The notes under the pieces were generated by a model, which was not told the DNA's origin, searched no databases, and saw only the letters and a list, made by a program, of their open reading frames with translations. Positions 8,980 to 12,645 of a stretch of 19,039 nt of DNA are shown piece by piece (positions within the stretch are counted from its first letter, which is position 1; every line of letters begins with the position of its first letter). The DNA is from Candidatus Borrarchaeum weybense (lineage in GTDB: Archaea; Asgardarchaeota; Sifarchaeia; Borrarchaeales; Borrarchaeaceae), in the NCBI GenBank assembly GCA_019057385.1, contig JAHQJS010000004.1, positions 662,508-681,546 of the forward strand. Direction: 5' to 3'. Made by a program: the position numbers and the translations under genes.

Positions 8980-9849
8980 ATGATTATGGTATTGAAGGGG
9001 CACACTGAGACTGTTTACGACATTGCTATCAAAAATGATGGTCTTATTGCATCAGCGTCTGGTGACAAGACGGTTAGACTCTGGGATTTAAAATCAGGTA
9101 AACAATTAAAGGTACTTAAAGGCGCACATTCAAAACCAGTGTATGGAGTGGCGTTTCACCCCTTTGATGATAATCTACTTGCAACGTGTTCGATGGATAA
9201 CGAGATCGCATTATGGGATATAGCTACAGAAACAAAATTAAAAACATTGAAGGGGCATACGAAATCGATTCGATCGATTAGTTTTTCTCTTGATGGAAAT
9301 GTATTGATATCAGGATCAAATGATAAAACTATAGGATTATGGGATATATATTCTGGCAATCTTCTAAGAACACTAAAAGGGCATCTCGATCAAGTGTGGA
9401 GTGTTGCGATTGGCTATGATATTACCCTTGCCTCCGCTTCTAAAGATAAAACAGCACGTTTGTGGAATCTAGAAACAGGAGAACTTCTGCAGGTTTTTTC
9501 ACATGCCAATTACGTTTCAGATGTAGCGTTCTCGCCACAAATTGACCTTTTAGCATCCGCATGTTTCGATAATAACATCTATTTCTGGCAAAGTGGCTCA
9601 AAATCTCCTGTCAGGCTTATAAAAGCCCATGAACAACCTGTGTTAGGCATAGCTTTTAGCCATAATGGTAAATTTGTTGCATCGAGTTCTGCAGATAATT
9701 CCATAGGTCTATGGGATGTTCGTACTGGTGAATCTATTTTACGATTAACTGGGCATTCCGAGCCAGTTAGAAAGATTTTATTCAATTTAGATGATTCATT
9801 TTTGATTTCTTGTTCAGAAGACAAAACAATTGGTATCTTTGAAATTTAG
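8980..9849 (+). CDS. WD40 repeat protein, seven-bladed propeller
   Basis: Seven GH/AH...WD-type repeats (VRLWD, IALWD, IGLWD, ARLWN, IYFWQ, IGLWD, IGIFE). The track begins at TTG 8968; ATG 8980 or 8986 is more likely. Confidence 0.93.
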   Translation: MIMVLKGHTETVYDIAIKNDGLIASASGDKTVRLWDLKSGKQLKVLKGAHSKPVYGVAFHPFDDNLLATCSMDNEIALWDIATETKLKTLKGHTKSIRSISFSLDGNVLISGSNDKTIGLWDIYSGNLLRTLKGHLDQVWSVAIGYDITLASASKDKTARLWNLETGELLQVFSHANYVSDVAFSPQIDLLASACFDNNIYFWQSGSKSPVRLIKAHEQPVLGIAFSHNGKFVASSSADNSIGLWDVRTGESILRLTGHSEPVRKILFNLDDSFLISCSEDKTIGIFEI

Positions 9850-9888
9850 ACTTTTCTTCTTTGAAAATGGAGGCAGAGTATAATTTTT

Positions 9889-9940
9889 TTGAATTCCCAT
9901 AGAAAGAGGCAGGGTATTTACCCGCTTTTCTATGGTTCAA
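9889..9940. terminator. long imperfect hairpin between convergent genes; possible bidirectional terminator or structured RNA
   Basis: TTGAA-ttc-CCATAGAAA-gag-GC-a-GGGT-attt-ACCC-GC-t-TTTCTATGG-TTCAA. The 9-bp arms CCATAGAAA/TTTCTATGG are perfect complements. Confidence 0.55.
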
Positions 9941-9980
9941 TAGGAAACTTAGAGGAAATAAAAAATGCCTGATTAGGATA

Positions 9981-10157
9981 TTAGAACTTATGTAATACTG
10001 GAACTGGCCCTGTGATTATAATCTTTGAACGACTGATAGTCTTATCACATTCTTCACAGAAGTATTCCTCATATATTTCTCGTCCATTGTCACCATGTAG
10101 TATTATGAAACGAGATGCACACTCTACCCCGCATTTAGGACACATTGTTCCATTCAA
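9981..10157 (-). CDS. small zinc-ribbon-like protein (58 aa), absent from the supplied ORF track
   Basis: Hand translation from TTG 10157: (M)NGTMCPKCGVECASRFIILHGDNGREIYEEYFCEECDKTISRSKIIITGPVPVLHKF*. Two CxxC knuckles (CPKC, CEEC). GAGGTGG ribosome-binding-like sequence 6 nt upstream of the TTG; alternative ATG at 10145. Confidence 0.7.
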   Translation of the reverse strand: MNGTMCPKCGVECASRFIILHGDNGREIYEEYFCEECDKTISRSKIIITGPVPVLHKF

Positions 10158-10311
10158 TAGTTACCACCTCTTCAATAGTTAACATAGACTTTGTAGATTG
10201 TTATATCGAGTTACCGTAATTTACGATATCCTTTTTTTTGGCTATTTGGGCAAAAAATCGATTCAATAGGAGATTTTTTCTTTTATTCCATAGGAAAATG
10301 GGTTTAATTAA

Positions 10312-10334
10312 GGGTTCATTTTAAAAAATGACCC
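10312..10334. repeat. inverted repeat / hairpin
   Basis: GGG-T-TCATTTT-AA-AAAATGA-CCC. A second small GAGG...CCTC hairpin follows at 10342-10357. Confidence 0.5.
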
Positions 10335-10667
10335 CCGTCTGGAGGAAAATTCGCCTCTTGACGAAAACCCCTTCTAATTCCAACATTCAATTTTTTGACA
10401 TTTCTTGTTTACTACTTTCATTTATCACCTCTTTATTGAATGTTCAATATTTTTCACAAATATTGTTCATTTGTCTTATTAATTACCTCTAGATCGTTCA
10501 TTTAATAGATCAAATTGAATACCAACATTAAATCGTTCATTTATAAATCTTTCGCTATAGAAGATGATCGAATTATATCAAAAAAGATATTTTTTTACAT
10601 TTCTATTTCAAAAAGAGTTGTATATTTCACTTACGTGTTACAAATAGGCTAAAAAGTTCTAGTAGGC

Positions 10668-10741
10668 GATTTGGTGAACTTTGGCTAAGTTATCAAGAAC
10701 AAGAAATCATCTTTTTTTTCTTTCTTATTCCCTACCAAATC
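10668..10741 (-). promoter_or_regulatory. candidate SECIS element of selenoprotein gene A (3'-UTR, overlapping the terminal TGA)
   Basis: Minus strand: GATTTGGTAGGGAATAAGAAAGAAAAAAAAGATGATTTCTTGTTCTTGATAACTTAGCCAAAGTTCACCAAATC. Closed by perfect 8-bp GATTTGGT/ACCAAATC; 69/74 positions identical to the element after gene B. Confidence 0.75.
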
Positions 10742-11216
10742 ACTTATTTAACTTTTCAAGCACTTCGAATAATGCTTTATTCTTCGGAATGTCGCTCATA
10801 GAATCACTGTAATAAGCATATTGAATGATTCCCTCTTTGTCGACTATAAGTAGCGCCGGCATGCGTCCTAATTTTCGAATTTTGAATTCCTGATGCAGTT
10901 TTTTGGCAACTTCCTTATTGTTATCGTAATATATCGGAAATTTTTCTTTCGCGTACTTTTGTTCCATCTTAATAGCATTTTCAAGCGTGTCTACCAAAAT
11001 TGGATAAATAATCGTGTCTAATTGCTCAAATTGCTCTTTATCTTTAGCAAAACTGCGAACTTGTGCTCTGCAATATGGTCAGTTGATGCTTCTAAGTAAA
11101 GCAACGATAACATTATTCTTTTCGATGAAGTCTTTGATGTTTACGTTTTCTTCCCTTGAATTAGGCAGAGAAAATTCTTCAATTTCCTTCCCTACCATTT
11201 CAAATTTATCCTTCAT
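10740..11216 (-). CDS. selenocysteine-containing peroxiredoxin-like / AhpC-TSA thioredoxin-fold protein A (UxxC)
   Basis: Reading TGA at 11079-11081 as Sec gives 158 aa: MKDKFEMVGKEIEEFSLPNSREENVNIKDFIEKNNVIVALLRSINUPYCRAQVRSFAKDKEQFEQLDTIIYPILVDTLENAIKMEQKYAKEKFPIYYDNNKEVAKKLHQEFKIRKLGRMPALLIVDKEGIIQYAYYSDSMSDIPKNKALFEVLEKLNK*. No other in-frame stop and no frameshift. The TGA falls at the expected N-terminal redox position of a CxxC-type peroxiredoxin-like motif. Confidence 0.88.
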
Positions 11217-11333
11217 TCGTCTCTCTCTCAAGTTCTCCGTCCTTTGAATTTACTTTGATTCTGTCATTACAGTGTTTTTAATCTTTATTGATGCGGTATA
11301 CGGCCCTTTTGACTTAAAAATAAGAATTCTGGC

Positions 11334-11406
11334 GATTTGGTCAACTTTGGCTAAGTTACGAGAACAAGAAATCATCCTTCTTTTCTTTCTTATTCCCTAC
11401 CAAATC
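11334..11406 (-). promoter_or_regulatory. candidate SECIS element of selenoprotein gene B (3'-UTR)
   Basis: Minus strand: GATTTGGTAGGGAATAAGAAAGAAAAGAAGGATGATTTCTTGTTCTCGTAACTTAGCCAAAGTTGACCAAATC. It starts 5 nt after the TAG stop of gene B and is nearly identical to the element after gene A. Confidence 0.75.
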
Positions 11407-11411
11407 AGTTA

Positions 11412-11891
11412 CTACTGTAGATTTCTAATTGCTTCTAACAATTCCTCAATTTTAGGATTGTCCTTTCCAGAATCACCATAGTAAGCATATTGTATGATTC
11501 CTTCTTTATCTACTATGAGGACGGCTGGCATTCGTCTATATTTGTCATCTACTAATTTAACTTCCTGGCCGAGTATTGTTAGTACTTCTTTCGATTCATC
11601 ATAGTACACAGGAAACTTACCTTTTGCATATTTTTGCTCCATTTCAATGGCATTTTTGAGTACATCCTCCGTAATTGCAATGATGATGGTATTTGACTGA
11701 TCAATCTCATCAAAATGATTAGCTAAGCTCTGGATGTGCTTTCTTCAATGTCCTCAGGCCAGTCCTTTTTTCAATGATATGACTATGTTTTTTCGTCCAA
11801 GAACTTCTTTAATATTTACCGTTTCGCCTCTCGAATTAGGCAGGGAAAACTCCTTGATGTGTTTTCCTATCATATTAAATTTATCTTTCAT
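11412..11891 (-). CDS. double-selenocysteine peroxiredoxin-like / AhpC-TSA thioredoxin-fold protein B (UxxU)
   Basis: Reading TGA at 11754-11756 and 11745-11747 as Sec gives 159 aa: MKDKFNMIGKHIKEFSLPNSRGETVNIKEVLGRKNIVISLKKGLAUGHURKHIQSLANHFDEIDQSNTIIIAITEDVLKNAIEMEQKYAKGKFPVYYDESKEVLTILGQEVKLVDDKYRRMPAVLIVDKEGIIQYAYYGDSGKDNPKIEELLEAIRNLQ*. Codon 46 aligns with Sec-46 of A and codon 49 with Cys-49 of A. Confidence 0.85.
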
Positions 11892-11937
11892 AATTCAACC
11901 CGTTCTGGATTTTAATTTTAAAGAAATTGATCAAGTT

Positions 11938-12645
11938 TTATTTATATTCTTCGCCGATCCCTTCTGGAGGATATTTCGCTTTAACGCGTGGAATTGCGAT
12001 AAATTCTCTTATTTCAAGTCCTTCTTCTGGGTCAAAAAATTTCAAACTGGTGGAGGGTTTAATGACAACTGCAGTATCTAGACCCATAGAAGTGCCGGCA
12101 GCAACAACGACTTCCTCTTGGGATTTAATTACATTCGCGTCTGCAGCCATTATTGCAACTTCTACGCACACAATTAACCCACCAGAGATTAACCTCAGCG
12201 CTTCTGTCATCATTTGTTCGAAAGTAACTCCTTTAAATGTTCCAGCGATAGCTGTACCGACTCCATAAAAAGGAATAGTACCCCTAACAACTTTAATCCC
12301 TAACTCTTCAAGCTTATCCTGTATTTCATCAGTCATGTCCATTCTTACCTTCTTTAAGCCTTTTTGTTGCCATTCTCTTAGCTGTGTTTTCAGTTCAGGA
12401 ATATCACTCCAAGGACCATGTAAAGATTCTTTGACCGTCCAATATGCTCCAGGAGGAATGGTAACTGCGATAATTTCCAATTCTTTCCCCATAATCTCAT
12501 GGGCTTTTAAGGCACTATTTCCACGAAGGGTGGCAACAATCACGGTCTTAATGCCGAGTTCATTACTCCTCTCTTTGATTAATTCAAGTGTTCTTAAAGT
12601 GTTACCTGGACCGGGTCTTTCAAAGTATTCTATCCACTTTCGCAT
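11938..12645 (-). CDS. pyruvate kinase alpha/beta domain-like protein (archaeal, uncharacterised)
   Basis: 235-aa ORF: IEYFERPGPGNTLRTLELIKERSNELGIKTVIVATLRGNSALKAHEI ... EALRLISGGLIVCVEVAIMAADANVI, resembling stand-alone PK C-terminal-like domains in archaea. Confidence 0.75.
   Translation of the reverse strand: MRKWIEYFERPGPGNTLRTLELIKERSNELGIKTVIVATLRGNSALKAHEIMGKELEIIAVTIPPGAYWTVKESLHGPWSDIPELKTQLREWQQKGLKKVRMDMTDEIQDKLEELGIKVVRGTIPFYGVGTAIAGTFKGVTFEQMMTEALRLISGGLIVCVEVAIMAADANVIKSQEEVVVAAGTSMGLDTAVVIKPSTSLKFFDPEEGLEIREFIAIPRVKAKYPPEGIGEEYK

Follow-up and report, generated by a model that had tools for sequence, protein, structure and literature searches.

Does an archaeal gene interrupted by two TGA codons only six nucleotides apart encode a truncated peptide, a decaying remnant, or a single intact protein into which selenocysteine (Sec, U) is inserted twice? 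This question is raised by a gene that we call gene B, located on the minus strand of a 19,039-nt stretch of the Candidatus Borrarchaeum weybense assembly GCA_019057385.1 (contig JAHQJS010000004.1, positions 662,508 to 681,546; hereafter the window, with position 1 as its first letter), for which an earlier note made from the bare sequence had proposed a two-Sec UxxU redox motif. The coding sequence (CDS) spans 11412..11891 (159 codons, ATG at 11891 and TAG at 11412-11414), and its translation shows, as that note had described, a frame open except for two TGAs separated by two codons: codon 46 (11754..11756) and codon 49 (11745..11747), with GGA CAT between them, in the context …ISLKKGLA-U-GH-U-RKHIQSL…. 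The translated product contains two Sec and no Cys. A conventional open reading frame (ORF) caller recovers only a 76-aa C-terminal piece (11412..11642), the same fragment to which the note had seen the gene reduced by its annotation, and the identical Logan contig carries public gene calls that split gene B likewise. We consider, with a probability of roughly 85%, that gene B encodes a cytoplasmic peroxiredoxin-like (PrxL) oxidoreductase in which both cysteines of a CxxC box have been replaced by Sec (U46-G-H-U49).

When U is changed to C, the gene B product matches the Pfam family AhpC-TSA (PF00578) with an E-value of 1.4e-16 over profile positions 1-123 of 124, covering residues 8-135 of the protein, and it is also matched by Pfam Redoxin. 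The full-length match to AhpC-TSA implies that the frame corresponds to one intact domain, broken only by the two TGAs. We mapped the active site using phmmer alignments to solved structures in the PDB. Against peroxiredoxins of the BCP/PrxQ type (2ywn, 2cx3), the box is aligned with the T-x-x-C motif, U46 with its Thr and U49 with its peroxidatic Cys; gene B also matches ResA-type CxxC oxidoreductases in this search, with U46 aligned to the N-terminal and U49 to the C-terminal Cys of their box. In the AlphaFold model of an ortholog 89% identical to gene B (mean predicted local distance difference test score, pLDDT, of 92), position 46 lies just ahead of helix 47-58 and position 49 in the first turn of that helix. 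Foldseek searches with the same model placed Sulfolobus Bcp4 and Bcp1 on top (template modelling score, TM, of 0.84), followed by ResA. The canonical peroxiredoxin motif P-x-x-x-T-x-x-C is not conserved, since K42 stands in place of Pro, U46 in place of Thr, and Sec occupies the position of the peroxidatic Cys; the conserved peroxiredoxin Arg is retained (R120). Gene B has, therefore, a peroxiredoxin-like fold but is not a canonical peroxiredoxin. These alignments and the model, together with the orthologs described below, support the proposal that a two-Sec UxxU box occupies the redox positions in a thioredoxin-type fold.

The novelty that this proposal implied does not hold, because UxxU peroxiredoxin-like selenoproteins of Asgard archaea, and the diselenide proposed for them, were already published in 2016 (PMC4989117). 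In that work, Mariotti et al. defined PrxL in Lokiarchaeota, reported that both redox-box Cys of PrxL.1 are replaced by Sec, and cited SelL as the only other case of such a double replacement; all Loki PrxL lack Cys outside the redox box, and no member of the family had been experimentally characterised (PMC4989117). A peroxiredoxin selenoprotein was subsequently reported in Sifarchaeia by Sun et al. in 2021 (PMC9723677), a 2024 survey in ISME J reported PrxL from 43% of the Asgard archaea that use Sec (PMC11227280), and a 2026 review tabulates a 'Prx-like thiol:disulfide oxidoreductase' with UxxC/UxxU and 1~2 Sec (PMC13188914). Gene B shows the features of this family: a C/U-x-x-C/U box with Sec first replaces T-x-x-C (U46-G-H-U49), no Cys occurs outside the box, residues 1-48 are identical to the listed protein Sifarchaeia_GCA_019057385_U, and identity to other listed PrxL members is 42-57%.

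Both TGAs are present in every gene B ortholog that we recovered, including those at 91, 78, and 74-75% identity, the more divergent of which were obtained by fetching the DNA behind C-terminal protein fragments. About nine distinct B-type sequences (74-100% identity) all read TGA-NNN-CAT-TGA, that is, U-G-H-U, U-A-H-U or U-S-H-U, so that the residue after U46 varies among Gly, Ala, and Ser, and none of them has any frame disruption other than the TGAs. Orthologs with both TGAs come from at least seven other samples, in addition to two assemblies of near-identical strains. The locus is found at 100% identity in the Logan assembly of SRR14802572 and at 99.8% identity in the NCBI metagenome-assembled genome (MAG) GCA_019058535.1, an independent assembly whose strain variant is 99.7% identical over the 1.35-kb stretch containing gene B and its neighbour, gene A (see below); its four single-nucleotide differences, three of them non-synonymous, leave all three TGAs of the two genes in place. 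The ratio of non-synonymous to synonymous substitution rates (dN/dS, Nei-Gojobori method) is 0.05-0.22 for the 110 codons past the second TGA and, in divergent pairs, 0.05-0.16 for the 45 codons upstream of the first. Purifying selection on the downstream codons is as strong as on the upstream ones, and the ribosome must pass both UGAs of gene B. The conservation of the TGAs combined with the low dN/dS excludes assembly error, pseudogenisation, and termination at the second TGA.

Among the weaknesses that the earlier note had foreseen, an assembly error thus found no support, both TGAs recurring in independent assemblies and in orthologs. Neither did a lack of Sec machinery: the MAG GCA_019057385, which has identical proteins, is recorded with Sec forms of FrhA, FrhD (two), HdrA (two), and an AhpF-N-terminal homolog, as well as with an entry in the SelD set, and these other selenoproteins indicate that the Sec trait is present. 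The homologs did not refute the proposal either: Cys or Sec occupies position 46 and Cys mostly position 49, as in the haloarchaeal C-P-K-C and C-T-N-C homologs and in U-x-x-C ones, with Ala, Ser or Thr at position 49 in one subclade.

Gene A (10740..11216, minus strand; 158 codons, ATG 11216, TGA stop 10740-10742) lies 195 nt downstream of gene B on the same strand and encodes a second PrxL selenoprotein, U46-P-Y-C49, 54% identical to the product of gene B. Its in-frame TGA (11079-11081) is also codon 46 (…SIN-U-PYC-RAQ…), C49 is its only Cys, gene callers cut it to an 85-aa fragment, and its product is identical to Sifarchaeia_GCA_019057385_U_2 of the 2024 dataset. Gene A is missing from the syntenic site in the more divergent relatives, which have only gene B there. 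An origin of gene B as a tandem duplicate of gene A was considered and dropped, since the neighbour-joining tree that suggested it gives the pairing of gene B with the Borrarchaeum UxxC paralog only 37% bootstrap support, against 40% for gene B with a gene of another archaeon (L074).

We surveyed the redox motifs of the MKDKF subfamily, which contains both genes, at 80 reference-genome loci. Most members carry U-P-Y/F/H-C, one clade carries U-P-Y-A/S/T, two loci carry D-L-F-C, and nearly all archaeal members have a TGA at the position of codon 46. U-x-H-U motifs occur only in the Borrarchaeum-like sequences and in the L074 gene just mentioned (L074:2501-2992, uncultured archaeon, CAZZIC010000130.1), a double-TGA gene reading T-U-M-H-U-Q (TGA ATG CAT TGA) that is ~44% identical to gene B and is followed by the same 3' RNA element as gene B (53 bits; see below). 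The U-P-Y-A/S/T clade (L016, L018, L022, L026, L027, L029, L035, L036, L040, L043, L045 (1295), L051, L057, L060, L062, and L075) has kept Sec and lost the second redox residue, a loss that implies a mechanism based on one selenol, with no partner in the same molecule. The two D-L-F-C paralogs (L011:3143-3619 and L012:885-1358) are devoid of Sec, with Asp at its position, and lack the 3' RNA element. Bacterial homologs from Chloroflexota and Clostridia (L078-L084; 30-34% identity) have a TGA at the first redox position (U-P-H/F/Y-C) and represent a bacterial peroxiredoxin-like selenoprotein family, from which the archaeal 3' element is absent.

A candidate selenocysteine insertion sequence (SECIS) lies in the 3' untranslated region (UTR) of gene B. 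This three-helix RNA (11331..11409, minus strand; 72 bits and E 4e-13 with our covariance model), supported by covariation and by its minimum free energy (MFE) fold, begins 3 nt past the TAG and is composed of an outer helix GAUUUGG/CCAAAUC, a 12-bp main stem whose A-rich loop (GAAAAGAAGGAUGA) is 14 nt long, and a small hairpin closed by UAGCCAA. A second copy follows gene A (10665..10744, minus strand; 74.6 bits), its start overlapping the TGA stop of that gene. The two copies (~80 nt) are ~95% identical in pairwise alignment, compared with 54% for the proteins, and the z-scores of their MFE folds are -3.4 (gene B copy) and -2.7. We aligned 68 distinct copies from behind Sec-containing MKDKF-subfamily genes, in which the element begins 0-10 nt after the stop codon or overlaps it. 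The alignment supports the same outer helix (GAUUUGG/CCAAAUC), a main stem that measures 9-12 bp and carries an A-rich loop, and the small hairpin, whose loop UAGCCA is nearly invariant; 95.4% of the paired cells can pair in the model against 35-54% when the partners are slid, double-sided changes occur at 16 of the 21 pairs (one of them switching from G-C to C-G in 11 sequences), and the observed pairing and covariation values were reached in none of 500 shuffles. RNAalifold independently returned the same three helices.

We used the covariance model built from this alignment to search the window and 88 loci, 437 kb in total. All matches lie right behind Sec-containing PrxL genes, with the addition of one PrxL C-terminal remnant, and no match was found at the two D-L-F-C paralogs or at the bacterial U-P-x-C homologs. 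That remnant (L054:3250-3442, …KLGRMPALLIINKQGIIKYAYYSDSMDDIP…) is a decayed gene end that has retained an intact copy of the element (74 bits) ~390 nt beyond the intact gene's own copy. Across Asgard lineages (L003-L090), the element stands behind every Sec-containing MKDKF PrxL member. At L085-L087, L089, and L090, a convergent gene starts ~100 nt past the stop of the gene B ortholog and the element nearly fills the gap, leaving no room for another 3' SECIS. Because of this filled 3' space and the strict co-occurrence with Sec codons, we take the three-helix RNA as the likely SECIS of the family.

Published lokiSECIS elements are located in the 3' UTR straight after the stop codon, often overlapping it (PMC4989117, PMC11227280), and both window elements are placed in the same way. 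By contrast, a pattern search did not reveal in them the non-Watson-Crick quartet by which published SECIS elements of the Asgard/eukaryotic type are defined (AUGA abutting the main stem on its 5' side, GA or AA on its 3' side): the junction between outer helix and main stem consists of 1-3 nt (UA, AA, UG, and others), with UAA or UUA on the 3' side. As a canonical control we examined 64 metagenomic loci of the DFFRG-type PrxL subfamily, where nearly all of those with a locatable redox motif have AUGA, a 9-bp stem, an 11-nt A-rich loop ending in AG, and GA. The DFFRG elements of L121, L136, and L112 also fold as three-way junctions, with an outer helix and a small 3' hairpin whose loop contains GCC, and some DFFRG elements share the loop AAAAAAAUGAG with MKDKF-type ones. 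In Loki-type members of our element family, the stem measures 9-10 bp and the loop, AAUAAAAAUGAG, 11-12 nt; the 3' part of this loop is identical to some canonical lokiSECIS loops (AAAAAAAUGAG), whereas the window copies have the longer stem and loop given above, in comparison with ~9 bp and 11 nt, A-rich and ending in AG, in lokiSECIS.

Several candidates for a hidden quartet were tried. An AUGA followed by 29 nt and GA in the gene B copy, read as a 9+11+9 lokiSECIS, was rejected because its arms are unpaired and other copies have CA, UA or UU instead of the GA. Another AUGA, found 5' of the outer helix in 20 of the 68 copies and sometimes overlapping the stop codon, was rejected because its GA is Watson-Crick-paired with UC, and these outer-helix pairs covary (G4-C90, A5-U89). 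A bacterial-type SECIS inside the CDS was set aside given that the window is archaeal (tRNA-intron endonuclease, WD40 protein, best match Borrarchaeum) and the 3' element conserved. Many members of the element family have no recognisable quartet, the invariant UAGCCA hairpin loop being their sole common feature. The loop form stem-(N)GA-AAA…A-AUGA(N)-stem is present in 22 of the 68 copies, namely all those from Borrarchaeum and about a dozen others, against 3.0±1.7 (maximum 9) in loop-only shuffles, and would let G·A/A·G pairs form in tandem at the apical end of the stem; since this kink-loop arrangement is missing in the other two-thirds of the copies, we put it forward as a hypothesis only. 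It is possible, although we regard it as doubtful, that the second Sec of Borrarchaeum was gained separately from that of Loki PrxL.1 and that its signal is a rearranged, circularly permuted, kink-loop-like lokiSECIS.

The mechanism that we envisage for gene B would involve the decoding of both UGAs, six nucleotides apart, as Sec by tRNASec and EFSec of the archaeal/eukaryote type, with one 3'-UTR element directing both insertions, for which Loki PrxL.1 and SelL provide the precedent. The two selenols would alternately be reduced and joined in an intramolecular diselenide, and such a pair could constitute a very low-potential, over-oxidation-resistant centre for the reduction of peroxides or disulfides. 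The paralog encoded by gene A (U-P-Y-C) would carry out the same chemistry through a selenenylsulfide. The UxxU box may also be 'more reducing' than CxxC or UxxC boxes, as the earlier note had suggested.

Certain points weigh against this interpretation. The presence of Sec at positions 46 and 49 and of a diselenide is predicted from the sequence. The genes of the Sec machinery are not seen directly in the window, where a tRNA scan found no tRNASec, and the evidence for them comes from the literature on a sister MAG. One PrxL subclade has Ala, Ser or Thr at position 49, so the family does not strictly require a second redox residue, and U49 might function alone as a peroxidatic selenol, unpaired with U46. 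Finally, the main stem of the 3' element has no AUGA...GA quartet at its base, and Rfam yielded no match in the whole window at gathering thresholds and no SECIS model match even at E<=10 over positions 9800-12000, so that its role as SECIS rests on association, position, and architecture.

The last of these points leads to the alternative that survives best, although we deem it improbable, according to which both UGAs encode Sec but the three-helix RNA is a regulatory, stability or terminator element instead of a SECIS. Besides the lack of a canonical core and of Rfam SECIS matches, it is favoured by the fact that the element is known with one gene family, the search having covered PrxL loci. 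Nevertheless, within this family the element is strictly linked to the Sec codon and absent from the D-L-F-C paralogs, it lies 0-10 nt past the stop codon or overlaps it as lokiSECIS does (PMC4989117, PMC11227280), its three-way architecture is that of the canonical lokiSECIS of the other PrxL subfamily, to which its main-stem length and A-rich ...UGAG loop may correspond too, and no alternative structure fits the ~100-nt 3' space of L085-L090. The three-helix RNA at 11331-11409 is likely, on these comparisons, the 3'-UTR SECIS of gene B.

Far less credible is the possibility that only the first UGA encodes Sec and that translation stops at the second one, yielding a 48-residue peptide. Gene B is recorded in this form in the 2024 dataset: in its supplementary FASTA, where Sec is written as X, the entry Sifarchaeia_GCA_019057385_U (MKDKF...GLAXGH, 48 aa) ends at the second TGA, and the Borrarchaeum UxxU gene GCA_016840515_U is likewise a 48-residue fragment (PMC11227280). 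Both records leave out the second Sec and 110 residues. However, such a peptide would lack most of the AhpC/TSA fold, to which the profile match extends as far as residue 135, the downstream frame is intact and under purifying selection in the ~9 orthologs, and the second TGA is itself conserved even though any stop or sense codon could replace it. The published cut rather resembles an artefact of a pipeline allowing one Sec per match, and this single-Sec record implies that the Sec counts of Sifarchaeia/Borrarchaeales are slightly underestimated.

We grant equally little credit to the idea that UGA is translated into one of the standard amino acids, Trp or Gly (by genetic codes 4 or 25 or by near-cognate read-through), which would produce W-G-H-W or a similar box. 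Protein searches do retrieve 'full-length' homologs that show W in place of each TGA (e.g., GLAWGHWRKH, GIDWAHWKKH, and INWPYCR), but the corresponding DNA has TGA codons on short contigs that were gene-called with code 4, and one of these database proteins (P0010) also runs through the TGA stop of gene A (…NKWFGRE). The 20 genes of the window end with TAA (9), TGA (6) or TAG (5), and in-frame TGAs are found only in gene B and the adjacent gene A; the use of TGA as a normal stop and its absence in frame elsewhere exclude codes 4 and 25. Moreover, Sec-less archaeal homologs have Cys at the homologous positions, and the dedicated 3' RNA accompanies TGA-containing genes only. The weakest alternative, a decaying pseudogene or TGAs created by sequencing or assembly errors, might be invoked because gene callers break the frame and the data are metagenomic, but its probability is close to nil given that the two independent strain assemblies and the orthologs of at least seven further samples share the same TGAs, precisely at the two redox positions, without further disruptions and with dN/dS well under 1.

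The window has a GC content of 38% and contains, as neighbours of the two PrxL genes, those for a tRNA-intron endonuclease, a WD40 protein, ilvD, DHDPS, and an amidohydrolase, and the closest species representative is Candidatus Borrarchaeum yapensis (90% protein identity), which corresponds to Sifarchaeia/Borrarchaeales in GTDB-style naming. Between the WD40 gene and the RNA element of gene A extends an unusually long (~800 nt) AT-rich stretch (9850-10664) without Rfam match, in which the sole gene candidate is a 58-aa zinc-ribbon-like ORF (9981-10157, minus strand, CPKC…CEEC).

The double-Sec form of PrxL has been known since 2016, and gene B represents an annotation fix and not a discovery. 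At the protein level its value lies mainly there, as the gene is split by every caller and public databases contain Trp at the Sec sites; the latter is a systematic selenoprotein mistranslation in public clusters (P0001, P0002, and P0005-P0033; also L003 and L004). New here are a Borrarchaeum UxxU clade in a PrxL subfamily other than the published ones and a SECIS-like element whose main stem does not have the customary AUGA/GA core at its base. With gene B, a second PrxL subfamily has Sec at both residues of the redox box, which suggests that Asgard archaea have repeatedly exchanged the resolving Cys for Sec, and genes B and A form a natural UxxU/UxxC tandem pair for comparing a diselenide with a selenenylsulfide. 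The 3' RNA is the more interesting by-product, a possible test case for recognition by the archaeal Sec machinery. If Sec insertion really depends on it, Asgard archaea do not strictly need an AUGA/GA kink-turn at the stem base, and a dispensable kink-turn would bear on the evolution of the eukaryotic SECIS and its recognition.

Gene B can be set against several known systems. The best structural (TM ~0.84) and PDB sequence matches are BCP/PrxQ proteins (Bcp4 3hjp, Bcp1 3drn, and S. tokodaii 2ywn/4g2e), although identity is only 15-18% and gene B lacks the Pro and Thr of their active site. The single-Sec U-P-Y/F-C PrxL proteins of Lokiarchaeia, Jordarchaeia, Sifarchaeia, and others (PMC11227280) are much closer (42-57% identity), having equal length, Sec at codon 46, the same MKDKF...FSLPNSRGE N-terminus, and the three-helix 3' element with its UAGCCA loop. 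They differ by the Cys at position 49 (Ala/Ser/Thr in one clade) and the Pro after Sec, where the gene B clade has Gly, Ala or Ser, and by the lack of the 2-4-residue insertion that this clade presents ahead of RRMP. Animal SelL (Shchedrina et al. 2007), as described in PMC4989117, is a peroxiredoxin-like UxxU protein of thioredoxin fold for which a diselenide was proposed and, like Loki PrxL.1, uses one SECIS for two UGAs two codons apart; it is, however, eukaryotic, belongs to a different peroxiredoxin-like family, and relies on a eukaryotic SECIS with SBP2. Compared through the profile of the SelL family (PF13911, AhpC-TSA_2), gene B scores 16.8 bits (E 0.0091), under the cut-off of 27, and its relation to SelL is one of analogy only. 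Loki PrxL.1 shares with gene B the AhpC/TSA fold, a redox box that stands in for T-x-x-C and has two Sec two codons apart, the absence of any other Cys, an Asgard host, and a single 3'-UTR three-way-junction RNA right after the stop codon for both UGAs. In contrast, it belongs to the DFFRG[AN]W-U-x-x-U subfamily, only 21-24% identical to gene B and separated from it with 100% bootstrap, and its SECIS has the canonical core (AUGA, 9-bp stem, 11-nt loop, GA) that the gene B element lacks at the base of its main stem, within the same three-way architecture. By parsimony, the second Sec of the gene B clade would have been gained apart from that of the Loki clade.

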